The notes: generated from the sequence alone by a model not told the origin. Shown: positions 13,378 through 59,321, numbered from the stretch's first letter. The stretch: 64,000 nucleotides of DNA from an uncultured Candidatus Saccharibacteria bacterium (GCA_964436165.1 CAYTBY010000001.1:73452-137451), one strand, 5' to 3'. Numbers and translations are program-made.

Positions 13378-14394
13378 ATGAAGAAAAAGAGAGAGATACT
13401 AGTGGCGATTAGCGGCGGTTTTGACCCAATTCATATTGGGCATGTTCGGTTAATACAGGAAGCTGGGAAATTAGGAAATAGACTGGTAGTAATTTTGAAT
13501 AATGATAATTGGCTCAAGAAAAAGAAGACCCATATTTTTATGCATCAAAAAGAGAGGAAGGAGATAATCGAATCAATTGAGGGAGTCGATGAGGTTATAA
13601 TCTCAAGCCATCCTAAAAACCCTAAAGATATGAGCGTCTCGAAGGAAATTTTAAAAATTAAACCCGATATTTTTGCTAATGGTGGAGATAGAAAGGAAGA
13701 AAAAGATATTTTGGAAGGAGAGGCCTGTCGTAAGGTCGGATGCAAGTTGGTTTTTAATGTTGGCCAGGGTGGAAAAATTCAGTCCAGTTCTTGGCTCTTA
13801 ACCAAATATGTCAACAAACTAAAGCCGGTTAGAAAATTAAATATTAATAAGATACTGAACGAACTGAGGATTGTATTTAGGAAATCCAAAATAAAATTTC
13901 CTGAAAAATTACGAATAAAAACATCGAAAATAATCCTTAGATTAATGAATCGTCGTCGGGGATTCGGTCTCTTTATAATTATCGGCTGGCAGGATAAGTG
14001 GCGTAAGTATACCGACTTGCCCGATTCAAGGCAGGATATTTATGTCAGGCACCATCAGAATATTTTAAAACACTACCACAGTCACAAACACGACATTGAA
14101 ACAACCGTTAATTTTGACGGAGCAATTCTTGTCGATAAGAGGGGCAACATTGTTCATTCCGGGATTATTATCGAGGGCTTAAGGCCGGGAGTAATTGCCG
14201 ATAAAATACGTCCTGGCCACTTTAAAGATCTTTCGGAGCAGTTTGGTTTTGGCGAAAAAGTCCACTCTCGGCACTTATCGGCCATAACTTGTTCCTATAT
14301 TTTTAAAGGAACAACGGTCATGACCGTTTCCGAAGAAAATGATTCTTTTCATGTCTTTGAAGGCGGGAGGATAATTTATAAAACTCACAATTAA
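13378..14394 (+). CDS. Fusion protein: N-terminal HIGH-motif cytidylyl/adenylyltransferase domain plus C-terminal diadenylate cyclase (DAC)-like domain
   Basis: N-terminus ILVAISGGFDPIHIGHVRLIQEAGKLGNRLVVILNND (HxGH nucleotidyltransferase). C-terminus GFGLFIIIG…FDGAILVDKRGNIVHSG…HSRHLSAITCS…TVMTVSEENDSFHVFEGGRI aligns with the DAC DGA and RHR(AA)…VSEETG motifs, with the second Arg replaced. Confidence 0.5.
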   Translation: MKKKREILVAISGGFDPIHIGHVRLIQEAGKLGNRLVVILNNDNWLKKKKTHIFMHQKERKEIIESIEGVDEVIISSHPKNPKDMSVSKEILKIKPDIFANGGDRKEEKDILEGEACRKVGCKLVFNVGQGGKIQSSSWLLTKYVNKLKPVRKLNINKILNELRIVFRKSKIKFPEKLRIKTSKIILRLMNRRRGFGLFIIIGWQDKWRKYTDLPDSRQDIYVRHHQNILKHYHSHKHDIETTVNFDGAILVDKRGNIVHSGIIIEGLRPGVIADKIRPGHFKDLSEQFGFGEKVHSRHLSAITCSYIFKGTTVMTVSEENDSFHVFEGGRIIYKTHN

Positions 14395-16016: not shown

Positions 16017-16769
16017 ATGTACAATAATTTTATGTCCAAAGTTGGAACTCTTAAAATTTCACGGAGTGGGTTAAAGCTATTTCTCGAATGTCCGAGGTGT
16101 TTTTGGCTGGATTTGCACCACAAGATTAAAAGGCCGCCCGGATATCCGTATACTTTATCGGCGGCGGTGGATTACTTAGTAAAGAGGGAGTTTGATAAAT
16201 TTAGAGTGGAAGGGACCTTGCCCCCGGTTCTCACCCTGAGCGGAGTCGAAGGGTTAAAAGGTGCTAAGCTTTATGCTGGCGATAATCTTGCCGAGTGGAG
16301 AAATAATTTTAAAGGTATCTCATATTTTGATGAGTCGCTTAATGCAAATTTGTATGGCGCGGTTGACGATGTTTTAGAATTTAAAGACGGGTCATTGGCG
16401 GTTATCGATTATAAATCTTCCGGTTCAAAAGAGATAACTATTTACGATGACTATCAGAAACAGATGGATGTCTATAATTATATTCTTCAGCAGTTGGGCT
16501 ACGAAACATATCCCGAAGCATTTTTTGTTTTCTATCAGGTCATCAAAGAAGGGGAGGATGGTTTTCAAAACGCTTTAAAATTTAAAGAACAGGTAAAAGC
16601 GGTCAAGGTTAATAAGGATTGGGTGGGTCCGGCCTTTGAAGCGGCGGTAGAACTTGCCAGACAGGATTCGCCTCCGGCTCAAAGCGGAAATTCCCAAAAA
16701 CACTGCGACCATTGCCATTACGTCGAGCTGGCCTCTCAATTTAAAATGATCCCAGATTTGAATATTTAA
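16017..16769 (+). CDS. Cas4/RecB-like PD-(D/E)xK nuclease, standalone
   Basis: D…IDYK core (AVDDVLEF…LAVIDYKSS). QxxxY motif (YQKQMDVYNYI). Cys pairs at both ends (LECPRCFWL; HCDHCH) compatible with a Cas4-type Fe-S cluster. No cas genes adjacent. Confidence 0.55.
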   Translation: MYNNFMSKVGTLKISRSGLKLFLECPRCFWLDLHHKIKRPPGYPYTLSAAVDYLVKREFDKFRVEGTLPPVLTLSGVEGLKGAKLYAGDNLAEWRNNFKGISYFDESLNANLYGAVDDVLEFKDGSLAVIDYKSSGSKEITIYDDYQKQMDVYNYILQQLGYETYPEAFFVFYQVIKEGEDGFQNALKFKEQVKAVKVNKDWVGPAFEAAVELARQDSPPAQSGNSQKHCDHCHYVELASQFKMIPDLNI

Positions 16770-16793
16770 AAAAGCGTCCTCGCGGGACGCTTT
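16768..16793. terminator. Bidirectional terminator between convergent genes
   Basis: aaagcgtcctcgcgggacgcttt; a perfect hairpin with A/T flanks on both strands. Confidence 0.55.
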
Positions 16794-16799
16794 AGCAGC

Positions 16800-17474
16800 C
16801 TATCGATTAAAGTTTGCTATTTGTCGGTTAAGCCGAATTTCTTTCTTTTCTTCAGCTAAGTTTCGGCTTATCAGCTGATTAATTTCTTGGTGGGCTTTCA
16901 GGAGATCAACACCAGCTTGATGTTCGCTTGCCTTTAATTCTTCAACTTCGGATTGAAGTTCCTTGTTCTTGGCTTCGAGGGTTTCTTTTTGCTTTAAGGC
17001 CTCAAGAAGCTGCTCTCTAAGATTATTGTTATCAATCTTGGTTTGATTTAGTTTCGCCAGGCATTCAGTAAGGGTCTTTGCCAACTCCACATCGTCTCGA
17101 ACTTTCACACGGTGATTTCTCGGTTTTTCTGTCTCGTCAGAAGCCGTACCGACATTATCATTCATCCCTTTTCTTTTTAGGGCCGTTTTCCATGAATTGC
17201 CATCTTCGTATCCCTCCGCAAGGGCCAAGGATTTAGGCTGGCTGGAGCCTGGCACAAAATTTCCTCTCTTAAGAACAAGGATGTGGTGCTCCAAGAACTT
17301 CCTTAGGTTGATCGTAATTGACACCTGGGAAGCCCCTATAGCTTTTGCCAATTGTTTAGTGGTTGTTTCAAATCCGTTGCTAGACGAAACAGCACATTCT
17401 TTTCTCAAATAATTAATGATACTCTCGGCAACATTCTTGTGGTGTGTTTTCCTGGATGGCCGTGATTCTTGCAT
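16800..17474 (-). CDS. Putative DNA-binding protein: N-terminal wHTH-like domain plus C-terminal coiled coil
   Basis: N-terminus …LAKAIGASQVSITINLRKFLEHHILVLKRGNF (HTH-like). C-terminal heptad-rich region (LREQLLEALKQKETLEAKNKELQSEVEELK). Confidence 0.4.
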   Translation of the reverse strand: MQESRPSRKTHHKNVAESIINYLRKECAVSSSNGFETTTKQLAKAIGASQVSITINLRKFLEHHILVLKRGNFVPGSSQPKSLALAEGYEDGNSWKTALKRKGMNDNVGTASDETEKPRNHRVKVRDDVELAKTLTECLAKLNQTKIDNNNLREQLLEALKQKETLEAKNKELQSEVEELKASEHQAGVDLLKAHQEINQLISRNLAEEKKEIRLNRQIANFNR

Positions 17475-17583
17475 CAGATCCTCCTTGGGGAAGAGTGTTA
17501 AGGAACCCGAATCCTTATATTATACACGAGCTATAATATAAGTCAAGATCTATTGTCGGTGTAAATTGTGTTAAAATTCTACT

Positions 17584-19023
17584 ATGGCTAAAACACCTAA
17601 ATTATTTGCCGATCATTTTTATAAATTTTTCCAATGTCCGCATTGGATTTGGTACGACATCTATGCCGATGCGACCCAGAAAAAGAAAACCCCGGCGATA
17701 ATTGATATGATATATAAAGGCAAAGTTGCTAACGGAGCTAACATTCTGCGTGAGCATAAAAAATTCGAAGAAATAAAACCCGAGCTTTTACACGATCTGG
17801 AAGAAGCGTTTCTAGCTACTCTTGAAATGATGAAGCAAGGGAAAAATATTTATCATGGCGTCTTAATGCACGAGGATTGGGCGGGGATGCCGGATCTGCT
17901 TGAGGCAAGGCCAGGCAAGTCTAAACTCGGCGATTGGTACTATGTTGTCTATGATGTCCAGGCGTCTCTTGATCTTCGCGATGAGTATAAATTCCAATTA
18001 ATTTTTTACAGTTTAATTCTTGAACGTCTTCAGGGGGTCCGGCCAAAAGAGGCTTATGTTATTGATCCCCAGGGTAATGAGCGGTCTTTTAAAGTAGATG
18101 AATTTGTGGACCAGTTTCATCTGACCCGCGAGCAAATCGAAAAAATCTTGGATGGCGAGAAGCCGGCGCCATTTATTAAATCGACCTGCAAGAAAACCCC
18201 CTGGTATTCTCTTTGTTTCTCCGATGCCAAGGAGTGTAATGACGTTTCTCTGATATTTCGTTTGAGCCAGGCCGATCAAAGGCGATTATATGGTATTGGC
18301 ATTAAAACGGTTAGTGACTTGTCGGGAGCTGATGTGAATGAACTTCAGAATAAGCTAGAGGATTGGTCTTTTGATAAAATTGTCCGCTTTGTAAATCAAG
18401 CCAAAGCCCTTACAAATTATCAGCCGATGGTTTTGCGGAAGCCAATTTTTCCAGAGGTTGAACATGAAATATATTTTGATATCGAAGCCGATCCGACCAG
18501 GGACATCGATTACTTGTTGGGCTATTTGGTGAAAAGCAAGGACGGGGTTAAGTATAATTATTTCTTAGCTAATGATAAAAGCGAAGAAGAGGTGATTTGG
18601 AAAAAGTTCTTGGATTTCTTGGCCAAGCTCGATAATTTCGTTATTTATCATTATGCTTTTTATGAAAGGCAGGTTTTTGACCGCCTCGTTCTTAGATATG
18701 GCGCCCCCACGGTTTTAATCGAAAAATTTAAAGAAAACACTATAGATCTTTATAATAAAACAGTTGATACGGCTGTTCTGCCATTGTATTTTTATAGCCT
18801 AAAAGATGTGGCCGGATACCTCGGCTACAAATGGGATGATCCTACAGCCGGCGGAGCCGAATCTGTTGTCTGGTACAATGATTGGTTAGATAAGCGTGAT
18901 CCCGTGATTATGAAAAAAATCTTAAAATACAACGAAGACGATGTCCGGGCGACCCTCTTGATCAAAGAGTGGCTCGTGAACCAGAAACCCTCAAAACGAA
19001 GGGAAAAGCTGGACGAAGAATAA
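17584..19023 (+). CDS. TM0106-family RecB-like nuclease (N-terminal Cas4-like PD-(D/E)xK domain plus C-terminal RNase-H-like exonuclease domain)
   Basis: N-terminal FQCPHWIWYDIY and Cys cluster CKKTPWYSLCFSDAKEC. C-terminal YFDIEADPTRDIDYLLGY is a DnaQ/YprB-like exonuclease motif. Confidence 0.5.
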   Translation: MAKTPKLFADHFYKFFQCPHWIWYDIYADATQKKKTPAIIDMIYKGKVANGANILREHKKFEEIKPELLHDLEEAFLATLEMMKQGKNIYHGVLMHEDWAGMPDLLEARPGKSKLGDWYYVVYDVQASLDLRDEYKFQLIFYSLILERLQGVRPKEAYVIDPQGNERSFKVDEFVDQFHLTREQIEKILDGEKPAPFIKSTCKKTPWYSLCFSDAKECNDVSLIFRLSQADQRRLYGIGIKTVSDLSGADVNELQNKLEDWSFDKIVRFVNQAKALTNYQPMVLRKPIFPEVEHEIYFDIEADPTRDIDYLLGYLVKSKDGVKYNYFLANDKSEEEVIWKKFLDFLAKLDNFVIYHYAFYERQVFDRLVLRYGAPTVLIEKFKENTIDLYNKTVDTAVLPLYFYSLKDVAGYLGYKWDDPTAGGAESVVWYNDWLDKRDPVIMKKILKYNEDDVRATLLIKEWLVNQKPSKRREKLDEE

Positions 19024-19074
19024 ATTTAATCATTACATTAAGTATAGAGTCCTGCAACGGGACTTAAATTTTAT

Positions 19075-19103
19075 TTGACAAAAATATAAAAATAGAGTAT
19101 AAA
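19075..19103 (+). promoter_or_regulatory. Sigma70-like promoter for the 19143 gene
   Basis: TTGACA, then 17 nt, then TATAAA. RBS ggaaagagg 11 nt before ATG 19143. A hairpin-plus-T terminator of the upstream gene lies immediately before. Confidence 0.5.
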
Positions 19104-19142
19104 AATATAGATTGTATTGATATGGAAAGAGGTCTTTAACAC

Positions 19143-19739
19143 ATGGGTTCAAATAAAAACCTGCAAGCCGTAGGCAATCTATCCGGGCATGAAATTATCG
19201 GGACGAGGCAGTTGGGTGAATGGCCGAAAGATGAGATGGTGCGCCTTTGGGTCAGCGTATCTTCCGGAATCGTAAAGTATGGATTTACGATAGAGTATCG
19301 TGATCTAGAGTCGCCTCGCACGGGCATATTCGATGGAATAAGAATAGTCATCGACCCAGACGTGGGGTTTGAGATGCAGTGTTTTCTTCTTCTGCACCTT
19401 TTTGGTCATTCAGTTCAATGGGTTGCTCCATCGCTTGAACATAAGCTTGGAGAACTGCAGAATACGCAGGACCAGAAGCGCTTTATGCAAGTCTTGCACG
19501 ACTACGAGTTCGAAGCGGCTAGCTTTGGTATGCAGCTTATTCGAGAGGTTGGTGTCAAGGGTCTTGATCAATGGTACAGTGATTTTGTAGCAACTGACTG
19601 GAGATATGTCGAGGGATATTATCAAACAGGTTCGTTGCCAGATTGGAAAACTTGCATAGTCCGCGACTGTCCTACTATCTTGCCGGCGCCGATTCCGAAA
19701 CTACGGCATCGTCAAGTTGAAGTACGATTTGCTTTTTAA
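19143..19739 (+). CDS. Hypothetical protein (198 aa), first gene of a GC-rich island
   Basis: ORF with clear RBS. Contains LLLHLFGHSVQW but no recognisable HExxH. GC content visibly higher than flanking genes. Confidence 0.4.
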   Translation: MGSNKNLQAVGNLSGHEIIGTRQLGEWPKDEMVRLWVSVSSGIVKYGFTIEYRDLESPRTGIFDGIRIVIDPDVGFEMQCFLLLHLFGHSVQWVAPSLEHKLGELQNTQDQKRFMQVLHDYEFEAASFGMQLIREVGVKGLDQWYSDFVATDWRYVEGYYQTGSLPDWKTCIVRDCPTILPAPIPKLRHRQVEVRFAF

Positions 19740-19842
19740 ATAGCCGCTGCTTGGTCAAGCAGCTTTTTGTTTCGGTTGACAAAAATCTTTATTTAATTTA
19801 TTATATTATTGGTTCATTTCCAAACAAAACGAAGGAGAAGCT

Positions 19843-20463
19843 GTGAAGAAGATCATAGTGTGTCTCGTTGCGGCGGTCGGAATTCTTTTGGCGGATCAGG
19901 CGCCGGCTCAAGTTCTGGCTACCGCCGAAACCGGCGGTAAAGGCAATCACGCAGTATTAGTTTCTGCTAACGGTCTTTACCCTGAAGGCCTCACTCTTTT
20001 CAACGCCTATGGGCAATATGTTTACGGACTGACTGACTATATTGATGTGACAGTAGCCTACGGCAATATTTCTGCTTTAGGTGAAAGTCAAAATTATGTT
20101 GGCCTTGGATGGAATGCTGTTCTTCTTCGGAGAAGCCAGGCTTTCGTTGATGTTTCTTTTTTCAATGTTATTACTCTGCCCTTGAGCAACAGGAGCCAAG
20201 CCTCAACAGTTGTAATGACGCCTGCGGTTGTTGTAAGCAGGCCGATGACTGTGGCCGGAAAGTCCATAACCATCTATAGCGGATTGAACTCTCTGGTTCC
20301 AATCGGAGCTACACAAAATAAATTATTTACGCCGCCCGAAACCCTTTTTAATGTTCCCATCGGCATTTCGATGCCTTTAAGTAAGAAATGGATAGTTTGT
20401 GCTGAAGTTGATCCGGGTACTAACTTGAAAACATTAGGCCTTGGTGTTGTAAGGACCTTCTAA
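19843..20463 (+). CDS. Secreted beta-rich protein (signal peptide), GTG start, hypothetical
   Basis: RBS aaggagaag before GTG. N-terminus MKKIIVCLVAAVGILLADQAPAQVLA is signal-peptide-like. Own promoter (TTGACA-17-TATTAT) and terminator. Confidence 0.5.
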   Translation: MKKIIVCLVAAVGILLADQAPAQVLATAETGGKGNHAVLVSANGLYPEGLTLFNAYGQYVYGLTDYIDVTVAYGNISALGESQNYVGLGWNAVLLRRSQAFVDVSFFNVITLPLSNRSQASTVVMTPAVVVSRPMTVAGKSITIYSGLNSLVPIGATQNKLFTPPETLFNVPIGISMPLSKKWIVCAEVDPGTNLKTLGLGVVRTF

Positions 20464-20561
20464 CCAAAATCCCGACAAGTTGTCGGGTTTTTTATTCCTA
20501 GAATTGTTGGTGTTGACACCGTCCTAACCATATGCTATCATTCTAACCGCGTTAAGGTCCT

Positions 20562-21284
20562 TTGAAAATTCAACAGGAACCTGGGAGGGCACAAGAGATG
20601 GGATTGGTGGCATCTTTGCGTAGAAATTTTATGAAAGATGAAGATAAGAATCCGTCTGCGGTGACGGTAAATTCCGGTTTAGCCGGACTTCAGGCACCGT
20701 TAGCGGGTGTTACCCCTAGATCAATATTCTCGCCATTGTCTTCACCGGCAACTCAATATCAGTCCACCGTAAATACGGCCGAGGTTGATCCTCAACTTCA
20801 TGATGCATTGCTTTCAGCGATGAATAAAGTACCGGCCCCCGGACTTCAGGAGTTGTTACTTGTCATGGATGGGCTTGCAAATAGTCTTCCTCAAAATCAA
20901 CTTTGTCAAGTTGCTCTGAATGTTGTTGCGAAAAAGAACATTACATTAGCTCAAATTCAGGATGAATTATCTAAACGTCTGGCAGCACTCGATAAAGAAA
21001 ATGATGATTTTGTTGGAGCAGCTGAACGTCAATATAGTGTTGACATCGGTTCCAAAGAATCAGCCATTGCTTCAGATGATCAGCAGATAGCAGGCCTAAA
21101 TCAACAGATCATAAGTTTACAGGAAAAGATAAGAAATTTGGAAGGGCACAAAGCCAAGCTGCAAGAAGAAAATTCTGCTAGGAAGCAGGTAATTGACAAG
21201 AAAAAGGGCGGACTTGCCGCAGCCCATGCAAAGTTAAGGCAAGACGCGGCTTCGTTGCAAAACAGAATCTCTGGCGGAAGCTAG
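20562..21284 (+). CDS. Coiled-coil protein, hypothetical
   Basis: The C-terminal half is heptad-rich (QQIISLQEKIRNLEGHKAKLQEENSARKQ). The start may be an internal ATG (MGLVASL… or MKDEDK…). Confidence 0.4.
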   Translation: MKIQQEPGRAQEMGLVASLRRNFMKDEDKNPSAVTVNSGLAGLQAPLAGVTPRSIFSPLSSPATQYQSTVNTAEVDPQLHDALLSAMNKVPAPGLQELLLVMDGLANSLPQNQLCQVALNVVAKKNITLAQIQDELSKRLAALDKENDDFVGAAERQYSVDIGSKESAIASDDQQIAGLNQQIISLQEKIRNLEGHKAKLQEENSARKQVIDKKKGGLAAAHAKLRQDAASLQNRISGGS

Positions 21285-21300
21285 AGGAAAGGAGAGACAG

Positions 21301-22356
21301 ATGGAAACAGGAACGTCGAACCCGTCCTCTCTGTCCGACTTCGTCGGCGGAAAGGTAAAAGGATTTTGGGAGCGAAAAGAAGGAACTACCGGAATGGCAG
21401 TTGTCGCTCTCGCTGCCGTTGCAATTTTTGTGGGTTGGGGAGTGATCGTGCCATTCATTGTAGCGACTCTGCTCAATACTATTTATGCCGGGATTCTCAT
21501 CGTGGCGCTTGCTTTCATGTTAGCTACCCGTGGAGTATGGGTATCCATGTTCCAGAGTGCTTGTCGGGGTTTGACCCGCCTTTGGGCGAATATCGACCCG
21601 ATTGGTATCATGGAAGAAGATTTACGGCAGGATAAAAAAGAGCTTCTTGCTTTGGATAAGAATATGGACGAGCTTTCCGGTCAGGTTGAAGGTCTTCAAA
21701 AAGATGAAGAAAGTACAAAAGATAGTATTAATCAGGCTATGCGAGCTACTAAACAGGCAAGAGACAAGATTCAATCAGGAAAATTATCTTCTGCTGATCA
21801 GGAGGCGATGAATCGTCAGTTAATGCTTAATGGCAATGATGCCACTCGTAAGCAGGATTATCTCAAGTCTTTACTAAATCTCATGTCCACCCTGAAAGAT
21901 ATTTATAAGATGGCAGAGAAATGGCGTGGTCATCTTGATTATTTAATTCAGGATCGCGAAAATTTCATCACCATTTCAAAGAAAAAGCGTAGGATGTCAA
22001 TTACTGGCAATAACATCGTGAACAGGATGAAGGGTATTCTCCATGTCGATCCCGATCGGGTATATATGCTGAATGCAGCCATTGAAGCGCAAGCAGCACA
22101 ATACAATCAGCGTGTAGGTACGATCAAGAATTTTGTACGCACTTATCGAGACACTTTAGTTAAAGGTGACTTACAGAATGAAATGCATGCTCAGCAGGCG
22201 TTGCGCCAACTTGAAGAGTGGGAACGTCAACAGGGTGAGGCTGCTATTCAGCAGATCGAATCGAGAGATTTGAGTATGGCTGAGGTACATCCTCTTGCTG
22301 TATCGGCATCGGAAGTGAAAGCTTCCACTACGGAGCGGGCGAAGTATTTTCAATGA
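21301..22356 (+). CDS. Membrane-anchored (2 TM) coiled-coil protein, possibly PspA/IM30-like
   Basis: N-terminal TM helices (MAVVALAAVAIFVGWGVIVPFIVATLL; ILIVALAFMLA), then about 250 aa of predicted helix. WANIDPIGIMEEDLRQDKKEL loosely resembles the PspA N-terminus. Coupled RBS aggagag. Confidence 0.35.
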   Translation: METGTSNPSSLSDFVGGKVKGFWERKEGTTGMAVVALAAVAIFVGWGVIVPFIVATLLNTIYAGILIVALAFMLATRGVWVSMFQSACRGLTRLWANIDPIGIMEEDLRQDKKELLALDKNMDELSGQVEGLQKDEESTKDSINQAMRATKQARDKIQSGKLSSADQEAMNRQLMLNGNDATRKQDYLKSLLNLMSTLKDIYKMAEKWRGHLDYLIQDRENFITISKKKRRMSITGNNIVNRMKGILHVDPDRVYMLNAAIEAQAAQYNQRVGTIKNFVRTYRDTLVKGDLQNEMHAQQALRQLEEWERQQGEAAIQQIESRDLSMAEVHPLAVSASEVKASTTERAKYFQ

Positions 22357-22377
22357 GTCTTGGCGGCGGGCAGTAGT

Positions 22378-22407
22378 GTTTAGGGACAGAATCCTCTGTC
22401 CCTAAAC
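22378..22407 (+). promoter_or_regulatory. Perfect 13-bp-stem hairpin in the leader of the ABC transporter operon
   Basis: gtttagggacaga-atcc-tctgtccctaaac; not followed by a T-run. Lies 48 nt upstream of ATG 22455. Confidence 0.4.
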
Positions 22408-22454
22408 ATCGGAAACACGGCGGCGGAGAAAGAGAAAGAAAAAGGAGAAGGGCC

Positions 22455-24029
22455 ATGATCGACTGGACCAAACCAATTCCGAAATTCGGGCGCATCCTCG
22501 TAGCGGTGCTCGTTCTCGTTATGGGCGGGCGCTATCTGTTGAGCAAGACTGGTGTCACAACCAGTTCTGGCTCAACGTCAGCTATTCCGGCGGCACCGTC
22601 ATCAGGTGGTGCGTTGTCGGGCCTGACAAATCTGTTCAGCGGCAACAAGCCGTTGACGGTCTGCACCAATACCTGGGGCGGATATGCTGCGATGTACTAC
22701 TACAACGGCGGTAACACACCGTCCAAGGACTCCCGTTTCTATAAGGAGCAGGGCGTCCAGGTCGGTTTCGTGAATATCGATCCGCTTGGAGAATCGCGCG
22801 ATGCATGGAAATCTGACAGTTGTCAGGTTCTGTGGGTCACGGTTGACAGTTTTCCAACGGAATCGGCGGACTTGGCAGGGCTGAAGCCGAAGGTTTTCGT
22901 TCAGTATGACTGGTCGCGAGGCGGCGACGTTGTTATCGGCAGCGCCTCAGTTCGTTCGGTTCGGGACTTGCGCGGGAAGAAAGTCGCAGCAGCGACTGGC
23001 TCGCCTTCAATGACCCTTCTGGCCAAGCTCTTGGAAGCCGGTAGTCTTCGATATAGCGATATCGAGTTCATCGGTACTGATTCAGCTCCGCAAGCTGCGG
23101 AATTATTTAGGGCCGGGAAGGTTGATGTGGCCGTTGTCTGGTCGCCTGACGATCAGGATGCCCTAAAGGCAGTGTCCGGTTCTCGGGTATTGATGAGCAC
23201 GAAAGACGTGCCATATGCCATTGCGGACGTTTTGTACGCGAAGGAGTCGGTCATCAACGAACGCAGGGAAGATCTGGTCGGATTTACGGCCGGAGTTCTT
23301 ACGGCGTCGGCTGAACTGAATGCCAGTTCATCGGTTCGCAAACAGGCGGCGGCAGTTCTTGCCAAGGCAATGAAGCAGGACGTCGGATTCATGGAAGGCG
23401 CCGTTGAGAACGTGAGGTTCACGACTTACGGCGACAACCTTTCATTCTTCGAGATGACGGGTACCTCCAGAGGCTCTGTTACGGGCCAGGAGCTCTACAG
23501 TCAGATGGGCGCTACGTTTGCCGAACTTGGGTTAGCTCCCAATTCCTTGCCGAGCTGGCGGTCATTGACCGACACCTCGATCTTGGAAGCGGTGGGTACG
23601 AAGCTCAAGGCGACAGGTGATCAGGCGGCCGAAGGTGCCTTCAAGTTCTCGGCGCCGACTGCCGCAGAAGCGAGTGCGGAAGCATTTGCCACCAAGCACC
23701 TAACCGTTAACTTTGCAACAGATTCAGCCGAGCTTGATCTGGCTGCCAAGAAAACGATCGACAACGCTTTGGCGGGTACGGCTAAGTCATTTGCCAGTGT
23801 TCGGGCCCGTATCGTCGGCAACACCGACAATACCGGGTCGGCTGCCCATAACAGAGAACTGTCTCAACGCCGGGCTAATGCCGTGGCCGAATATCTTGTC
23901 AGAACTTATGGGTTTGACAAGAATCGATTTACGTCGCGGGGCGACGGTCCGGATAATCCGGTTGTGCCGAATACTACGCCTGAGGGAAGAGCCCAGAACC
24001 GCAGAACCGATTTCGAGCTAACCAAGTAA
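22455..24029 (+). CDS. ABC transporter substrate-binding protein (NitT/TauT-like) fused to a C-terminal OmpA/MotB peptidoglycan-binding domain
   Basis: N-terminal TM anchor. Periplasmic-binding-protein-like middle region. C-terminal NTDNTGSAAHNRELSQRRANAVAEYLV…RAQNRRTDFEL is an OmpA_C-like signature. Confidence 0.6.
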   Translation: MIDWTKPIPKFGRILVAVLVLVMGGRYLLSKTGVTTSSGSTSAIPAAPSSGGALSGLTNLFSGNKPLTVCTNTWGGYAAMYYYNGGNTPSKDSRFYKEQGVQVGFVNIDPLGESRDAWKSDSCQVLWVTVDSFPTESADLAGLKPKVFVQYDWSRGGDVVIGSASVRSVRDLRGKKVAAATGSPSMTLLAKLLEAGSLRYSDIEFIGTDSAPQAAELFRAGKVDVAVVWSPDDQDALKAVSGSRVLMSTKDVPYAIADVLYAKESVINERREDLVGFTAGVLTASAELNASSSVRKQAAAVLAKAMKQDVGFMEGAVENVRFTTYGDNLSFFEMTGTSRGSVTGQELYSQMGATFAELGLAPNSLPSWRSLTDTSILEAVGTKLKATGDQAAEGAFKFSAPTAAEASAEAFATKHLTVNFATDSAELDLAAKKTIDNALAGTAKSFASVRARIVGNTDNTGSAAHNRELSQRRANAVAEYLVRTYGFDKNRFTSRGDGPDNPVVPNTTPEGRAQNRRTDFELTK

Positions 24030-24043
24030 TGCCAGTAACAGTC

Positions 24044-24080
24044 GTAAAGATCAAAGGGGTAGGCGCCAACGGCCCTACCC
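24044..24080 (+). terminator. Intra-operon terminator/attenuator between the binding-protein and permease genes
   Basis: aggggtaggcgccaacggccctacccct hairpin followed by ctttttg. Confidence 0.5.
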
Positions 24081-24111
24081 CTCTTTTTGTAAGCACAGAA
24101 AGGAGACAGGT

Positions 24112-24918
24112 GTGGTGAAACAACTGCTGGCGGAATTGTTCGAACTCAGAGGGAATTTATCCGGTCAAAAAAAGATCATCATTGAAGTGGTGGGAGCTAT
24201 ATTCTTATTCTTGCTTTGGAAGGTAGTGGCAGATATGGAATTGATCTCGCCTTACATCTTGCCAAAGCCGCTAAATGTTTTCTCATCTTTTGGGGAATTG
24301 TACCGCAAAGATGATCTGATAAATAATATATTGTTCTCAGTTAAGTTGAACTTAGCCGGATGTTTGGAAGCGATCATCATCTCGTTGCCTATTGGATTCG
24401 TACTGGGGCTTTTCCCGGTATTCAAGGCCTTTAGCCAGAGATATCTGAGCGCAAGCCGATTTTTGCCTCTGCCGGCGGTACTTGGGATCTTTATCGCCGG
24501 ATTTGGCATTTACGTGAACATGAAAGTCCAATTCCTGGCAGTGAGCATTATTGTTTACCTTGTACCGGTTGTAGCTCAACGCGTCTCTGAAACGCCCCAA
24601 GTTTACATCGACACGGTCAAAACGCTCGGGGCTTCAAAATGGCAGACCATCCGCTGGGTTTTTATCCCGGATGTGTTTTCCAGGGTCTGGGCTGATATCG
24701 GAGTTTTGAGCGCCATCTCCTGGACCTACATTACTATTGCTGAAAAAATAAACGATAACGAAGGCGGGATAGGAGCTCTTGCAGAAATTTCCCGCCGACA
24801 GAGCAGAATAGATAAGGTGTATGCTGTTGTCATCCTTATTGCCCTTATCGGATGGTCATTTGATAAGGTCCATGCCTGGACGGACAAACGCATGTTTAAA
24901 TTCAAAAGGAGTGCTTAA
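24112..24918 (+). CDS. ABC transporter permease (NitT/TauT family)
   Basis: GTG start with RBS aaaggaga. 6 TM. Conserved TLGASKWQTIRWVFIPDV loop typical of this permease family. Confidence 0.75.
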   Translation: MVKQLLAELFELRGNLSGQKKIIIEVVGAIFLFLLWKVVADMELISPYILPKPLNVFSSFGELYRKDDLINNILFSVKLNLAGCLEAIIISLPIGFVLGLFPVFKAFSQRYLSASRFLPLPAVLGIFIAGFGIYVNMKVQFLAVSIIVYLVPVVAQRVSETPQVYIDTVKTLGASKWQTIRWVFIPDVFSRVWADIGVLSAISWTYITIAEKINDNEGGIGALAEISRRQSRIDKVYAVVILIALIGWSFDKVHAWTDKRMFKFKRSA

Positions 24919-24919
24919 G

Positions 24920-25726
24920 ATGGGTGTTATCCAATTTGCCAACACTGAACTGCCAGATATCCTTGAACTGCGTAATGTTACCCAGAGATATGATAACGGG
25001 AATGTGGTCATTGAGAACCTGGATCTTCTTATCGAAGACCAACCCAATGTAGGCCAATTTGAGGTCATTCTGGGAATGTCAGGATGCGGTAAATCAACCC
25101 TTCTTCGGTATTTCGCCGGCCTCCAAAAGCCAACTGCGGGCGAGGTGTTCATTAAAGGACAGCCCCGCAAAGATAACGATGCTATCAGCATGGTCTTTCA
25201 GCAATATTCATCGATGCACTTTCATACGGTAATGACCAACGTTATGCTGCCCCTGATATTCAGGGGGGTAAATAAAAAGGAAGCTCAACAAAGAGCGATG
25301 GAACTTATTAATGTTGTCGGTTTGGGAGGGCATGAGAAAAAATATGCCCAGTATCCGGCTCTTTCCGGAGGTCAACTCCAGAGGGTGGCGATAGCCAGAA
25401 GCTTGATTGCCAACCCCGAGATCGTGCTAATGGATGAACCATTCGGGGCTCTGGATATCCTTACCAGGACCGGAATGCAGTTGATGATAGCAGATTTGTG
25501 GCAACGGCTGCAATCAACCATTATCTTTGTTACCCACGATATTTCCGAAGCCGTTTTTCTTGCTCAGAACATCTACATCATGGGCGGAAAGCCGGCTAAG
25601 CTCATTGAGCGTATCTCGGTTGATATTCCGTTCCCCCGCACGGTAGCAACGAAACGTTCGTCCCAATTCACAAATCTGGTGGGACAAGTAGAAGATTTAG
25701 TTCTTAGAATGAATCAAGCGGTATAA
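24920..25726 (+). CDS. ABC transporter ATP-binding protein (NitT/TauT family)
   Basis: Walker A GMSGCGKSTL. Signature LSGGQLQRVAIARSL. Walker B VLMDEPFGALD. RBS aaaggag before ATG 24920. The longer ORF from 24821 is a frame run-in. Confidence 0.85.
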   Translation: MGVIQFANTELPDILELRNVTQRYDNGNVVIENLDLLIEDQPNVGQFEVILGMSGCGKSTLLRYFAGLQKPTAGEVFIKGQPRKDNDAISMVFQQYSSMHFHTVMTNVMLPLIFRGVNKKEAQQRAMELINVVGLGGHEKKYAQYPALSGGQLQRVAIARSLIANPEIVLMDEPFGALDILTRTGMQLMIADLWQRLQSTIIFVTHDISEAVFLAQNIYIMGGKPAKLIERISVDIPFPRTVATKRSSQFTNLVGQVEDLVLRMNQAV

Positions 25727-25735
25727 GCTACAAAA

Positions 25736-25764
25736 CAAAAAACCCGATCATCTGATCGGGTTTT
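25736..25764. terminator. Bidirectional terminator between convergent ABC ATPase and AAA ATPase genes
   Basis: aaaaaacccgatcatctgatcgggtttt. Confidence 0.6.
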
Positions 25765-25777
25765 ATATTGTCTTTAT

Positions 25778-27343
25778 TCAGGTTTTCTGGATCTGTCTTT
25801 GGGTGATATTCGTAAAATCTTCGGCAAAATCTTTCAGGAAGGGCGCCATGTTGGAAGTCTGGTCAAGGAGCAGCTGAGTTTTTAACTTATTTAGGACAGC
25901 GGCCCTGACATCATTTTTTGTAACTCCGGTTTTTGTTTTGTTTTTGCGGTCTCGTTTCATGGCATTGGATACGGCATCATCGGTCGTTCCGGCGATCATC
26001 GCTCCGTTGATAACATGGGACAGGTTGAATGTCAGTTTTTGTTCGTTGGCCCTGGTTACGTCGTATAGAACCCTATCAGCAGAATACATTTCTGAAGCGA
26101 TATGGTCGGCCATCTCATCAATGTTGCCTTCACCCGAAGCTATGGGCGTGTTTTTGAGATGAATTCTGGCAATTGACTTGCCGGCTTCTTGGTCTGGCCG
26201 GCCCACTTCGATGACGTGATTTATTCTTTTATCCCGGGTAACTGCTTCATCCAGTATTTCCGGTTTATTGGTGGCTAAGATTATAATTGAACGGGAACGG
26301 TTCATCTGGGTCAGAAATACTGTGACCAGGGGATCTGTGGCGTCTGAACTCTTGCCCGAGCCTCTTTTTCGGAAAATAGCGTCGGATTCATCAAAGGCAA
26401 TGATGGCCGGAAAGTTATACTTTTCGAAGTGTGATTCCCCGGCAAGGAATACCTGCTCGATAGTGTTTTCGGCAACGCCTACCAGGGGCTCAAGGATCTC
26501 GGCCCCATTGATGAGTAAAAATCCTCCGGCTGCTTTTTCTTGTCCATGTGTCCTGGCCATGGATGTGGCTGCGGCTTCTATAAGCATGGTCTTGCCGCAA
26601 CCCGGCGGGCCTATTAAAAGAAAGCCCTTTGGAACCTTCGCATTGTAATAAGCATGAAGATCTTTTTCGGTGTATGGAAGCTCAAAGGCTTCTCTTAGTT
26701 TCTCTTTAGCTTCTTCCTGGCCGCCGATGTCATCCCAGGTTATTTTAGCTTCCTGGCTGAAAAGGAATCGTTCTTCTGTTTTTCCGAGATTCAAAATAAT
26801 TATGCTGGCAGAGATATCAACGACTACCCTGTCGCCGGCCTCTATTTTACCGGCCATCATTCCGTTAAAGACAACCCGCCTCCCGTTGTTATAATTTATC
26901 TCGCTGGTCATTTCATCAATGACCCGGCGGACGGTTCCGACTTCACCATAAGGATAATTTTGCGCCGTATCGGTTATCTGCATTGTCTGGGATGAAATTT
27001 TAACTGTTGCTCCGGGCAGTATTTCTTTTTCTTTGGGCAAAAATACTTCAAGCAGGCGGCCGCCCTGGAGGATAATGGCAGTCGGGTCTTTCGGGTCGAG
27101 TTTGTTGACGGCGACGACGATCCCGAAAAGGAATGGCGGAGAAGAAAGTTTCCTTGCCTCTTCGACTTGTTTCTTGATGAGAAGTTTAATATTTCGCAGG
27201 TGATCTTTTAGCTCTTTGGGGTCATCGGTCTGGAGCATAGGATCCTCTTCCGGGGTTTTATACTCACCTCTTTTAACGAAATCAACGGCGTCTTTCCACT
27301 GACTCGGCAGAAGATCAGAGTCAAGAGAATCGAATAGGTCCAT
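25778..27343 (-). CDS. AAA+ ATPase (CDC48/PAN/ARC-like unfoldase architecture: N-domain plus single AAA module plus C-terminal extension)
   Basis: Walker A LLIGPPGCGKTM. Walker B IIAFDESD. Second region of homology present. No TM segment and no HExxH, so not FtsH. Confidence 0.7.
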   Translation of the reverse strand: MDLFDSLDSDLLPSQWKDAVDFVKRGEYKTPEEDPMLQTDDPKELKDHLRNIKLLIKKQVEEARKLSSPPFLFGIVVAVNKLDPKDPTAIILQGGRLLEVFLPKEKEILPGATVKISSQTMQITDTAQNYPYGEVGTVRRVIDEMTSEINYNNGRRVVFNGMMAGKIEAGDRVVVDISASIIILNLGKTEERFLFSQEAKITWDDIGGQEEAKEKLREAFELPYTEKDLHAYYNAKVPKGFLLIGPPGCGKTMLIEAAATSMARTHGQEKAAGGFLLINGAEILEPLVGVAENTIEQVFLAGESHFEKYNFPAIIAFDESDAIFRKRGSGKSSDATDPLVTVFLTQMNRSRSIIILATNKPEILDEAVTRDKRINHVIEVGRPDQEAGKSIARIHLKNTPIASGEGNIDEMADHIASEMYSADRVLYDVTRANEQKLTFNLSHVINGAMIAGTTDDAVSNAMKRDRKNKTKTGVTKNDVRAAVLNKLKTQLLLDQTSNMAPFLKDFAEDFTNITQRQIQKT

Positions 27344-29812: not shown

Positions 29813-30961
29813 TTGACTTCTATAACTAATAATGCTATTGTATGTGGAGGTACAATAGACTATCATAGGGTCATGTCAAATCAAGCAGTAATAACCAAAA
29901 CGGTCGCTTCTTTGGTAAAAAATATATCAACTCGCAACAAGGATATTATATCCAGGCGTTTTGGTTTGAAAACAGGCAAAAAGGAGACTCTGGAGTCGAT
30001 AGGCAAGAGCTATGGAATTACCAGGGAAAGAGTAAGGCAGATAGAGGAATTTTCCATTAACCAGTTGTCTAAGGTTGTTGCTTCGACTCCCGATGTTTCA
30101 AAATACGTTTCTTTGGCCAAGGAAATACTAGGCGGTAACGGGGGGGTGATGAGGGAGGCTGAGTTATTTAAAGCATTTAGCGGAAACGATAAGGAGAGTG
30201 TTGTAAATGCCTCGCTTGTTTTTATTCTTTCTCTGGCCGGCGAGCCTGCCTCGCCGACTCGCCTCGCCGAAGCCTCCGGCGTAGCGCGGGCAGGCGGGCC
30301 GGTAAGATTCGGTGAAAACGAGTCATACTATTCCTTCTGGGGTTTAAATAGGGAAAGTGCCGATATGTTTAAAAATGGGATTTCTGCCCTGGTCAGTTCA
30401 TTTGCAAAAAACGGAAGCCCGGTGGCTTATACCGACTTGGTTTCTTTTGCCCAGGCTAACAGCATCTCAAATTCTAAAGACGTTGTGGTTTATTTGAATT
30501 TGAGCAAGGAGCTTGGAAGAAATGTTTTTGGCCAAATTGGTTTAGCCAGTTGGGCCGAAGTAAAACCAAAAGGAGTCAGAGATAAAGCCTATTTGGTTTT
30601 GAAGAAAGAGAAAAATCCAAAACACTTTACCGAGATTGCCAAACTTATAAACTCAACCGGTTTTTCTGATAAGAGAGCTAATGTTCAGACTGTTCATAAC
30701 GAACTGATTAAGGATAAAAGATTCGTTTTAGTCGGCCGTGGAATGTATGGGTTATCGGAATGGGGTTATCAGCCGGGTACGGTCAAAGAAGTGTTGGTCA
30801 GCGTTCTCAAGAACCATGGCAAGCCCTTAGCCAAGGCCGAACTTGTGGCCAAGGTTTTGGATACCCGAATGGTCAAAGAAAACACAATATTATTAAATCT
30901 TCAGGATTCTAAAGTTTTTTCAAAACGGGAAGACGGAACTTACGTCTTAAAAAAGGCGTAA
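29813..30961 (+). CDS. Putative transcription factor: sigma-70 region-4-like HTH near the N-terminus plus C-terminal HARE-HTH-like domain
   Basis: TLESIGKSYGITRERVRQIEE is a sigma-70 region 4.2-type motif. C-terminal WGYQPGTVKEVLVSVLKNHGKPLAKAELVAKVL…FSKREDGTYVLKK is a HARE-HTH-like pattern. The probable start is ATG 29873. Confidence 0.45.
   Translation: MTSITNNAIVCGGTIDYHRVMSNQAVITKTVASLVKNISTRNKDIISRRFGLKTGKKETLESIGKSYGITRERVRQIEEFSINQLSKVVASTPDVSKYVSLAKEILGGNGGVMREAELFKAFSGNDKESVVNASLVFILSLAGEPASPTRLAEASGVARAGGPVRFGENESYYSFWGLNRESADMFKNGISALVSSFAKNGSPVAYTDLVSFAQANSISNSKDVVVYLNLSKELGRNVFGQIGLASWAEVKPKGVRDKAYLVLKKEKNPKHFTEIAKLINSTGFSDKRANVQTVHNELIKDKRFVLVGRGMYGLSEWGYQPGTVKEVLVSVLKNHGKPLAKAELVAKVLDTRMVKENTILLNLQDSKVFSKREDGTYVLKKA
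30233..30305 (+). repeat. GC-rich palindromic element inserted in frame in the 29813 gene (encodes LAGEPASPTRLAEASGVARAGGPV)
   Basis: ggccggcgagcctgcc…cgccgaagcctccggcg…ggcaggcgggccgg has nested inverted repeats. About 75% GC inside an approximately 38% GC gene. Confidence 0.5.
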
Positions 30962-31061
30962 AGATAATGCAAATCAACGAATGACATGCGAATGCTACAA
31001 ATAAACATTCGCGGTATTCGCATATATTTGTAGATTAGCATTATGTAATGAGCTTCAGCGA

Positions 31062-32315
31062 ATGACTTCTTTTCTTTTAATACTAAATACTTTTAAGACG
31101 GTCTTTGTCCTCCTTATCTCCATTTGGTGGCTTTACTTACCTGTCTTTTTATTTTTACTATCCTATCTCGCCGTTAAAAACTATACTAATCTCAAATACC
31201 GCCTCTCTCTTGAGTGGACACTTCTTGAAATAAAAGTTCCAAAAGAAAATCGAAAAAGCCCCAAGGCGATGGAGCAGATTTTTGCCGGTTTACATGGCGT
31301 TTATACTATTAAAAAAAAGTGGCATAAGATATTTTTTAAGGGCGAGATGCTGGCTTGGTTCTCTTTTGAAATAGTTGGCAAGGGTGGTGAGACCCACTTT
31401 TATGTAAGAACTCAAACTGAATACAAGAATGTGGTAGAAGCCCAGATATATGCCCAGTATCCGGAGGCAGAAGTCGTTGAGTCGGTTGACTACATTAATG
31501 ATCTGCCCCTCTATTTGCCTGATGATAAATATGACCTGTGGGGAACTGAGCTAATTTTAAACAAGGAGGATGCCTATCCAATAAGAACTTATCCTGAATT
31601 TGAAGAAAAAGGAACCGGTCCGGAAGATGCAAAAAGAGTAGATCCAATGGCATCTATATCTGAGCTTTGCAGTACTCTTCACGCCGGTGAGCAGATCTGG
31701 CTTCAAATAATAGGTACTCCGATAGGAGATGATTGGATAAAGAAAGGCCAGGCCGTACTTGATAAGCTTATGGGTAAGGAAGCGGTCAAAAGCGGAAACT
31801 TTCTTTCTGATATGGTTTTTGCCATAGATAAGGCAATTAGCGGAATCGGCAGTGTTCCGGTTGATAAAAAAGAAGAAAGGAAAGAGAGAGTTAACTTAAG
31901 TCCAGGCAAAGAGGATATAATGAAGGCCATGGAAAAAAGCTGGGATAAGCTTGGGTATCAAACCGGCATCAGGTATTTATATATCGGACCTAAAGATAAT
32001 TTCCATCAATCCCACGTCGCCGGTATTAACGGTGCTTTTCGGCAGTTCTCTTCCCAAAATTTAAATGGTTTCAAATCGAATAAATACACCATAACTCACG
32101 CTAGAGGCTTATTTAAAAATTCAAAACTTTTAACGAGAAAGAAGGCCATTTATCAGGCATTTAGGGAGAGGCAGGTCATGCTTTTTAAATATGTGCTTAA
32201 TACTGAAGAATTAGCTACTATTTACCACTTACCGGATATTGGAGTCAGGGCGCCGTTATTGCCTAGAGTTGAGGCCAAGAGAGGTGAACCCCCGGTAGGA
32301 TTGCCAATTACATGA
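31062..32315 (+). CDS. Membrane protein (N-terminal 2 TM plus large soluble domain), partner of the downstream ATPase
   Basis: ORF overlaps the next gene by ATGA (32312). Hydrophobic N-terminus FVLLISIWWLYLPVFLFLLSYLAV. Confidence 0.45.
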   Translation: MTSFLLILNTFKTVFVLLISIWWLYLPVFLFLLSYLAVKNYTNLKYRLSLEWTLLEIKVPKENRKSPKAMEQIFAGLHGVYTIKKKWHKIFFKGEMLAWFSFEIVGKGGETHFYVRTQTEYKNVVEAQIYAQYPEAEVVESVDYINDLPLYLPDDKYDLWGTELILNKEDAYPIRTYPEFEEKGTGPEDAKRVDPMASISELCSTLHAGEQIWLQIIGTPIGDDWIKKGQAVLDKLMGKEAVKSGNFLSDMVFAIDKAISGIGSVPVDKKEERKERVNLSPGKEDIMKAMEKSWDKLGYQTGIRYLYIGPKDNFHQSHVAGINGAFRQFSSQNLNGFKSNKYTITHARGLFKNSKLLTRKKAIYQAFRERQVMLFKYVLNTEELATIYHLPDIGVRAPLLPRVEAKRGEPPVGLPIT

Positions 32316-58475: not shown

Positions 58476-59321
58476 TTGTATAAATCGAAATCATTAATAA
58501 CGCTAGTTATCGGCGGCGTTCTTATGGTCGGTGTCGCCTTAGGTTCTTATATGTCAAGCGGATCGGTTCCGTTTGCTTTTGCCCATGATGATGACGATGA
58601 TGAGCAAAAAGTAGATAAAGAAGTTCTAGAGCAGTTATATTTGGCCGCTTTCGGCAGGCCGGTTGATGAGAATGGCAAGAAGTTCCATCTTGGTAAAAAT
58701 TTGAAACAAGTTTTAAGAGACATCAATAGCTCCGAAGAGCGAAGATACTATTCGGCTTTATTTAAGGCCGTAAAGGCCTATGAAGAAGCGGTGCGAGCGC
58801 CAGGTGATTTGAGCGCGGCTGATAAACAGAAATATCTTGATGCTATCAATACGGCTCTTGCAACTTTACTAGCCTGGGTTGAGACATTGCCTCAACAGCA
58901 CATTTGTAATGGAGTGGTCGGAATTATGGAGGCCCGTCAAGCTATTCAGGATGCGTATGATCGTATGAGCCCCACTGCCCAAGCTGCATCTCGAAAAGGA
59001 ATTTTCAATGCCCTGAAGCATATCGGTGGTCCTAAGAATATTGATTTACCGTTTAAGCGTTGTATAGATCCAAGCCCAACCCCGTCCCCATCTGTAAGCC
59101 CGACACCTTCAGTAACACCAACCCCAAGTGTAACTCCAACCCCGAGTGTAACCCCAACACCGAGTGCAACTCCAACCCCGACTCCTTCTGCAACTCCCAC
59201 TCCCACTCCCACGCCCTCCGCAACTCCCACCCCGACACCCGAAGTAACCCCGACTCCCACTCCGTCAGCTACCCCAACCCCGACTCCATCAGTCACTCCG
59301 ACTCCGACCCCTACTCCGTAA
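58476..59321 (+). CDS. Secreted protein with C-terminal Pro/Thr/Ser-rich tandem-repeat tail
   Basis: TTG start with RBS aaggaagg. Signal-like N-terminus. C-terminal (PTPS[VA]T)n for about 80 aa. Confidence 0.5.
59071..59318 (+). repeat. Coding tandem repeat (about 18-nt units) encoding the PT-rich linker
   Basis: ccaaccccgagtgtaactccaaccccgagtgtaacccc… repeated, degenerate. Confidence 0.7.

Follow-up and report, generated by a model that had tools for sequence, protein, structure and literature searches.

The 64,000-nucleotide stretch of DNA analysed here (the window) comes from an uncultured Candidatus Saccharibacteria bacterium (GCA_964436165.1 CAYTBY010000001.1:73452-137451). Between positions 16,017 and 19,739 it carries genes for two nucleases related to Cas4, one of 250 amino acids (aa), here called Cas4L, and one of 479 aa, here called TM0106. 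A gene for a 224-aa protein separates them and a 198-aa open reading frame (ORF) follows. A preliminary description of this DNA had read the four genes as an island of paired nucleases with a dedicated regulator, serving defence or DNA-end processing. All four ORFs are present in the sequence with the coordinates given there, and the region is laid out as follows.

16017..16769, plus strand: Cas4L, stand-alone Cas4/RecB-like PD-(D/E)xK nuclease with four Cys ligands (CxxC…CxxC); from PF12705, PADLOC, motifs and the AlphaFold2 (AF2) fold
16771..16793, no strand assigned: GC-rich hairpin GCGTCC-tcgcg-GGACGC flanked by an A-run and a T-run, with the look of a bidirectional terminator; read from the sequence
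16800..17474, minus strand: 224-aa cargo gene, C-half coiled coil, N-half possible helix-turn-helix (HTH, unproven); from cluster search, AF2 and locus comparison
17519..17546, minus strand: promoter-like site TTGACT-16-TATAAT for the 224-aa gene (11/12 matches), in the 109-bp divergent spacer common with TM0106
17584..19023, plus strand: TM0106-family RecB-like nuclease; from TIGR03491, PF13482 and conservation in 62 orthologues
TM0106 N-half: Cas4-like iron-sulphur (Fe-S) PD-(D/E)xK domain with C18, D104, D124-x-Q126, C202, C211 and C218
TM0106 C-half: DEDD/RNase-H-like exonuclease with D299, E301 and Y449-N-E-D-D453
19047..19065, plus strand: terminator-like hairpin 3' of TM0106; from a consensus scan
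19143..19739, plus strand: 198-aa ORF, first gene of a window-specific cargo block; absent in 66 loci

The nearest homologues of both nucleases are found in metagenome-assembled genomes of Candidatus Yanofskybacteria, Paceibacteria and other Patescibacteria. By this analysis the DNA is that of a Yanofskybacteria-like Patescibacterium. Gene order was compared in 66 species-representative loci (GTDB species level) anchored on TM0106, using tblastn, hidden Markov model (HMM) searches and clustering; in 60 of the 66 it could be judged whether Cas4L lies upstream. A second sample, from a metagenome scan anchored on Cas4L, gave 80 loci. Compared loci are numbered with the prefix L and homologue clusters with the prefix P.

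Judged by its sequence and predicted fold, Cas4L is an intact Fe-S Cas4/RecB-fold nuclease. The preliminary description had called it Cas4-like from a DxK core, a QxxxY motif and Cys pairs, and this call was borne out. The best Pfam model is PF12705 (E=1.2e-11, 45.5 bits against a cutoff of 22), and C25-P-R-C28, D117/D118, D131-Y-K133, Q149…Y153 and C230-x2-C233 are invariant in 38 orthologues. The score above cutoff, motifs II and III, the QxxxY motif and four cysteines place the protein in the Cas4-like branch (PF12705) of PD-(D/E)XK nucleases. The models for Cas4 itself stayed below their cutoffs (TIGR00372, 23.8 versus 65 bits; PF01930, 16.5 versus 22.7 bits), PADLOC Cas4 models matched with E=6e-9 to 8e-6, and phrog_31195 matched with E=2.3e-19. 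In a Foldseek search with the AF2 model (predicted local distance difference test, pLDDT, 82.6) the best PDB folds were the AdnA nuclease domain (top, E=5.6e-6), ACE1, Cas4, MGME1 and Exo5, and lambda exonuclease was also found; further matches of the model are SSO0001, Pcal_0546 and the Cas4 subunit of Cas4-Cas1-Cas2 complexes. A PDB sequence search with Cas4L gave nothing meaningful. Because annotated homologues begin at M6, the true start of the gene is probably at 16032.

Viral relatives of Cas4L are distant. No match was found by tblastn (E<=1e-3) against phage records; IMG/VR contigs hold relatives of 27-39% identity, plus one 60% match at the end of a contig classed as viral. Relatives of 27-33% identity also belong to PF12705. 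One of them lies ~600 bp downstream of a recT gene (L163:4345-6678; PF03837, E=9e-43) and another one gene upstream of a gene for a PCNA-like clamp (L162:5914-8226). Both loci are phage or archaeal-virus recombination/replication modules.

TM0106 matches its family model over nearly the full length (TIGR03491, E=3.8e-97, 326.1 bits versus a cutoff of 97.45; residues 12-464 on model positions 6-462 of 462), and its C-terminal half matches RNase_H_2 (PF13482, E=3.8e-34, residues 296-465). The earlier call of a TM0106-type RecB-like nuclease with a Cas4-like N-half and a DnaQ/YprB-like C-half with an FDIE motif was thereby upheld, the motif corresponding to D299/E301. D299, E301, D303 and Y449-N-E-D-D453 are invariant in 62 orthologues, and so are C18, C202, C211, C218, D104 and D124. 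The Cas4 model TIGR00372 stayed below its cutoff (37.2 versus 65 bits) and PF01930 was barely passed (23.8 versus 22.7 bits). Motif III reads D124-V-Q126 and not D-x-K, so the N-domain lacks the canonical PD-(D/E)xK triad. Where motif III would have its Lys, the protein of the window has Gln, other clades of the candidate phyla radiation (CPR) have Lys or Arg, and long plasmid-borne forms described below have Lys. In some clades the Gln of QxxxY is replaced by Pro, while the residues around motif III and the four cysteines are invariant. Active Gln variants occur in the PD-(D/E)xK superfamily, for instance BglII, so the domain may still be active. Compensation of Q126 by the adjacent intact Cas4L was considered and rejected, since TM0106 proteins of the Lys, Gln and Arg type all occur both with and without an adjacent Cas4L. 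The cluster representative P0001 is identical to the TM0106 of the window. A PDB sequence search with TM0106 gave nothing meaningful, tblastn (E<=1e-3) against phage records gave no match, and IMG/VR viral contigs held no relative. HMM scans detected no helicase or AAA domain in either nuclease.

The linkage of the two genes, a check that the preliminary description had called for, is conserved in 38 of the 60 evaluable genomes. A Cas4L gene lies directly upstream of TM0106 in these loci, in 35 as a type-A gene on the same strand (53-88% identical to that of the window) and in three as an inverted type-B paralogue. The gap between the genes in the 35 type-A loci is 2-187 bp in 17 (below 50 bp in 15) and 309-2498 bp in 18. 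The 15 genomes with tight spacing (2-48 bp) belong to clades whose TM0106 is only 60-80% identical to that of the window. The larger gaps hold unrelated cargo genes, among them an N6/N4 DNA methyltransferase (L022) and a DUF5674 protein (L018), both with significant family matches, a weak DUF262/GmrSD-like gene (L063), a gene that looks aldehyde-dehydrogenase-like by eye (L007), and genes for small secreted or Pro-rich proteins. A PaaX-like gene (~175 aa, same strand) occupies the slot in five scattered lineages (L001:9358-9891, L008:3996-4601, L015:9300-9833, L023:7543-8061 and L039:4584-5102). Its product has a Cas2-like PF20803 domain (E=2.2e-22) and possibly an N-terminal winged HTH (wHTH; HTH_45, E=0.023). 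These in-slot copies become less identical as phylogenetic distance grows, and the gene may be an ancestral third member of the unit that was lost or replaced in most genomes, including the window. The type-B genes lie at the type-A position on the minus strand (L006:9198-9953, L011 and L018:8318-9073); their products are 32% identical to type A and 60-66% identical to a stand-alone family found elsewhere in metagenomes, which looks like gene displacement in situ.

In the scan anchored on Cas4L, TM0106 was found downstream in four of the 80 loci (L071, L074, L075 and L078), all of them among the matches more than 50% identical. The remaining matches are the type-B family (32-47% identical), in contexts such as SerS, HPF, SecA and MsrA. 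Pairing thus characterises one lineage, a Yanofskybacteria-like clade, rather than the Cas4L or TM0106 family in general.

Both nuclease genes lie in the core region between secA, the first gene of the window (1-2373), and secD (27507) and secF (28865). Across the 66 loci the conserved upstream flank consists of SecA/HPF, and the downstream flank of SecD-SecF, a sigma-like protein, a protein of unknown function and an ATPase resembling type IV coupling proteins (T4CP). The median identity to the window is 66% for TM0106, 65% for Cas4L, 63% for SecD, 56% for SecF and 53% for the sigma-like protein. The identity of TM0106 correlates with that of SecD (r=0.86), and that of type-A Cas4L with that of TM0106 (r=0.87, n=34). 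Since TM0106 is as conserved as SecD and the identities correlate, both nucleases are, as judged from these comparisons, inherited vertically under strong purifying selection like housekeeping genes and unlike patchy defence genes with fast turnover.

This does not agree with the proposed island at the edge of a GC-rich zone. The GC content of 16-20 kb is 0.41-0.435 and equals the background, so the nuclease genes lie outside any compositional island; the GC-rich stretch (0.53-0.56) is found at 22-24 kb, ~2.3 kb past the 198-aa ORF. No integrase or flanking repeats were found around the nuclease genes in the window. Judged by deviant composition, mobility genes and patchy presence, neither nuclease gene belongs to a genomic island, and only the inserted cargo does, namely the 224-aa gene and the segment 19143-27343. 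In agreement with the preliminary description, the 64-kb window has no CRISPR-like repeats and no Cas1 or Cas2 family match among its family-scanned ORFs. No cas1- or cas2-like gene was seen among the recurrent neighbour clusters of the 66 loci, most of which were without an HMM scan.

The 224-aa gene on the minus strand is convergent with Cas4L and bounded by a terminator, as described before. The hairpin at 16771-16793 lies between the two convergent genes and is not listed by the consensus terminator scan because its T-run is short. In addition to the promoter-like site, a Shine-Dalgarno sequence AAGGAGG is found 5 nt upstream of the ATG. With its own promoter and terminator the gene splits the pair, and each nuclease in the window is therefore now a separate transcription unit, as far as these signals can be read from the DNA. 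The protein has no meaningful match in Pfam, NCBIfam, PADLOC or PHROG. Its assignment as a wHTH plus coiled-coil protein held for the second part only: in the AF2 model, built on an alignment of just two sequences, helix 125-223 is confident (pLDDT 80-94), and the N-half (~43) has three short helices and no wing; the best HTH hint is HTH_Crp_2 at E=0.086. Among 5.8 billion proteins there is one other homologue cluster, P0242 (57% identity). It fills the same slot on the opposite strand, between PDDEXK_1 and RNase_H_2 genes, in L151-153, and L003 has a decayed, split copy. In other genomes the slot is empty or holds unrelated genes. The distribution among closest relatives only indicates that the gene is a recent, lineage-specific cargo insertion and not a dedicated regulator. 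The identity to P0242 is 83% in the C-terminal coiled-coil half and only 31% in the N-terminal half, a contrast of unusual sharpness.

We favour, with somewhat better than even confidence, the reading that Cas4L and TM0106 are two vertically inherited, housekeeping-type nucleases for DNA-end processing, formerly in one operon and specific to this lineage. In the ancestor they would have been a co-directional and probably co-transcribed pair in the core secA…secDF region, which was split by the 224-aa gene in the lineage of the window. Cas4L would resect 5' strands or nick DNA endonucleolytically, and TM0106, with its Cas4-like Fe-S domain and its DEDD 3'-5' exonuclease domain, would trim 3' tails and flaps. 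The products would be substrates for RecA-dependent repair and recombination. As both proteins lack a helicase domain, unwinding would have to come from a factor acting in trans. The cooperation of the two proteins, physical or functional, their substrates and polarity, and their role in repair or recombination are what we infer from these genes. The end-processing folds matched by the Cas4L model, the RecT-linked viral relative of Cas4L (L163) and the Dna2-like helicase fusions of TM0106 modules lend indirect support to a role in recombination. A more far-reaching version is unlikely, namely that the two assemble into a complex that has three nuclease domains but no helicase and that ancestrally included the PaaX-like wHTH/Cas2-like protein encoded between them. 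In that version the complex would be the main machine for DNA-end resection and trimming in Yanofskybacteria-like CPR, and the gap between the genes a tolerated landing site for cargo.

Several points weigh against a working end-processing pair. No biochemical or genetic characterisation of either subfamily was found in the literature, searches for TM0106, TIGR03491 and YprB found nothing about the TM0106 family, and the phylogenomic study of Cas4 makes no mention of an RNase-H or DEDD fusion (PMC5704561). The N-domain of TM0106 may not be a conventional active nuclease, because the motif-III Lys (to Gln) and the QxxxY Gln (to Pro in some clades) vary. Southlakia epibionticum, a cultivated Saccharibacterium, encodes a UvrD-type helicase fused to a PD-(D/E)xK domain with an AddB-fold match (SEML1_0364), and its transposon sequencing (Tn-seq) and annotation tables list no PF13482 protein (PMC10633639 supplement). 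Therefore the CPR as a group are not without classical end-resection enzymes, and the pair is not universal. The idea that CPR bacteria lack AddAB and that the pair replaces it cannot be asserted, since this Saccharibacterium has an AddB-like UvrD-nuclease fusion. Moreover, 22 of the 60 loci, each with at least 3.3 kb of upstream flank, have no Cas4L; the wider type-B family stands alone in other housekeeping contexts, and the linkage is limited to a clade. Half of the linked genomes have cargo genes with their own signals between the nucleases, and the pair therefore need not be co-transcribed.

The same gene orders bear on a rather unlikely alternative, that the two are independent housekeeping enzymes whose adjacency is inherited synteny without functional coupling. 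It fits with a wider Cas4L family that is never beside TM0106 outside this clade, with the 22 related genomes that keep TM0106 without an adjacent Cas4L, in several of which the upstream neighbour c9 abuts TM0106, with the tolerance of cargo between the nucleases in 18 genomes, and with the separate terminator of each gene in the window. The spacing of only 2-48 bp in 15 genomes of clades with a divergent TM0106 speaks against it, as do the replacement of the original Cas4L by a divergent paralogue at exactly the same position and the Cas4-like Fe-S nuclease fold common to both genes, which fits related tasks. As for the two functions named in the preliminary description, end processing is the better supported and defence is made unlikely by the vertical inheritance and by PADLOC-DB 2.0, which gave no system-specific match, only Cas4/Cas4b and weak DruK nuclease-domain matches and nothing meaningful for the 224-aa and 198-aa proteins. 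That the two nucleases degrade invading phage or plasmid DNA under the intervening regulator is thus distinctly improbable. In favour of this reading, both proteins are members of the Cas4 family, and TM0106 modules (~25% identical) are fused to SF1B (superfamily 1B) helicases on proteobacterial and cyanobacterial plasmids (L067:5968-9267, L068:5974-9321, L069:5818-9207 and L070:5761-9168). These proteins of ~1100 aa, two of them without the Cys ligands, consist of a ~480-aa TM0106 module at the N-terminus and an AAA_11/AAA_12 helicase related to the helicase region of Mokosh MkoA. Their neighbours are WYL regulators, an SbcCD-like pair, McrBC and HsdR, so elsewhere, and with another architecture, the family has been drawn into defence-type contexts. 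The slot, too, sometimes holds genes with a defence flavour, such as the methyltransferase in L022 and the weak DUF262/GmrSD-like gene in L063. However, the short CPR form has no helicase like that of the defence-context forms, the nuclease genes are conserved at the level of SecD in a core position with background GC and no mobility genes found, and the supposed 224-aa regulator is confined to a few close relatives.

A role in nucleotide salvage, in which imported or damaged DNA is degraded from both ends to mononucleotides in an organism unable to synthesise its own nucleotides, we hold to be very unlikely. A 5'-3' activity of the Cas4 type together with a 3'-5' DEDD activity would suit complete degradation, and CPR bacteria lack nucleotide biosynthesis, have com genes and have been proposed to import DNA for nucleotides (PMC10633639). 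Against this, Tn-seq in one CPR bacterium showed no fitness contribution of comEC, comF or dprA, and its authors concluded that nucleotide supply does not depend on DNA uptake (PMC10633639). In none of the 66 loci are com or nucleotide-metabolism genes linked with Cas4L and TM0106. Fe-S enzymes of the Cas4 fold, such as Cas4, AddB, Dna2 and Exo5, typically process ends rather than degrade DNA in bulk, which also argues against salvage. Highly improbable is a relic or derivative of an adaptation-like module without Cas1, composed of a Cas4-like, a wHTH plus Cas2-like (PaaX-like) and a Cas4-like/DEDD protein, which would echo prespacer trimming by Cas4, Cas2 and Cas2-DEDDh. The same-strand PaaX-like gene with its Cas2-like domain in the slots of L001, L008, L015, L023 and L039, with identities that fit an old residence, recalls such a module. 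But this gene is present in only five of the 35 linked loci, its Cas2-like domain belongs to transcription factors and not to CRISPR machinery (Pfam description of the PaaX family), no cas1 or CRISPR array was found in the window, and neither nuclease reaches the curated cutoffs for a Cas4 equivalog.

Comparison with known systems places both proteins in families that are already annotated; what is modestly new is their pairing in one lineage and the slot for cargo between them. TM0106 has the features of TIGR03491, with a full-length match above cutoff, a Cas4-like N-half with 1+3 Cys ligands and an RNase_H_2 C-half with DxE, and its motif III has Gln in D124-V-Q126, unlike the plasmid-borne long forms in which Lys is kept. 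With Cas4 and solo-Cas4 (PF01930, TIGR00372; Hudaiberdiev et al. 2017, PMC5704561) Cas4L shares the RecB-like PD-(D/E)xK fold, QxxxY and four cysteines. It differs in its sub-cutoff scores, with PF12705 as the best Pfam model, and in a CxxC…CxxC arrangement instead of the C…CxxCx5C of Cas4. In contrast to CRISPR-associated Cas4, no cas1, cas2 or array was found near the pair, which is inherited vertically in a core region. As in AddAB and AdnAB, two RecB-fold nuclease domains are encoded side by side, the top fold of Cas4L is the AdnA nuclease domain, and the Fe-S "staple" cysteines of AddB have counterparts in both Cas4L and TM0106. Unlike in these complexes, neither protein has a UvrD-like (superfamily 1, SF1) motor, a DEDD exonuclease domain is added, and a complex of the two is putative. 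The ~1100-aa proteins of other phyla, in which a TM0106 module is fused to an SF1B AAA_11/AAA_12 helicase, resemble Dna2-like nuclease-helicases; the protein of the window is a helicase-less short form, ~25% identical to these long forms, which are found in defence-type contexts. The distant viral Cas4L relative ~600 bp downstream of recT (L163) recalls the RecE/RecT and lambda Exo/Bet pairs, whereas no annealase gene was found near the pair in the window and Cas4L is chromosomal and inherited vertically.

If Cas4L and TM0106 work together, the pair would offer a first way into the function of the uncharacterised TM0106 family and an insight into DNA-end processing for repair and natural transformation in some ultrasmall CPR bacteria, and would be a compact case of conserved neighbours between which cargo has repeatedly been allowed to insert. 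Natural transformation is functional in Saccharibacteria (PMC10633639). The locus has a corrective value as well, since a Cas4-like gene outside a CRISPR context need not serve defence and the evidence here points to the housekeeping core genome.

The 198-aa ORF, which the preliminary description had included in the island, is absent from all 66 related loci; it was therefore rejected as part of the nuclease system and is, like the 224-aa gene, cargo. Its family comprises 287 clusters (E<=1e-3) with a conserved HLFGHxVQW…YE motif in which H85, G88, H89, Q92, Y121 and E122 are near-invariant, which suggests a metal site. No Pfam, NCBIfam, PADLOC or PHROG match of meaningful E-value and no PDB sequence match was found for this protein. 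The ORF opens a cargo block of 8.2 kb (19143-27343) between TM0106 and secD that has no counterpart in the 66 loci, and in 21 of these secD directly follows TM0106. Also in the block are three ORFs of unknown function, of which one has a signal-peptide-like N-terminus and two are coiled-coil, an ABC transporter made up of a permease, an ATPase and an NMT1-type binding protein fused to an OmpA domain (GC 0.53-0.56), and, on the minus strand, an AAA ATPase.

Upstream of the pair, at 13378-14394, the window encodes a 338-aa protein whose N-terminal domain is cytidylyltransferase-like and whose C-terminal part gives a weak, below-cutoff DisA/DAC-like match (E=3.8e-4); its gene keeps this syntenic position ahead of the two nucleases in 22 related loci. 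After secF follow a Sigma70_r4/HARE-HTH protein, an unknown 417-aa protein, membrane-bound as judged by eye, and a 593-aa ATPase of the T4CP/VirD4-like type (TrwB/TraG/DUF87). This downstream block (29813-34093) is conserved in most related loci, and orphan VirD4 homologues have been reported to be common in CPR genomes (bioRxiv 10.1101/2025.01.22.634366). Elsewhere the window contains one tRNA and genes for UvrB, a class II (Asp/Lys/Asn-type) aminoacyl-tRNA synthetase and Mur ligases. An ORF at 58476-59321 carries, at its 3' end (59112-59312), tandem repeats that overlap one another, recur every 18, 24, 30 and 48 nt and are rich in ACTCC/AACCCC; they probably encode a Pro/Thr-rich repetitive C-terminus.

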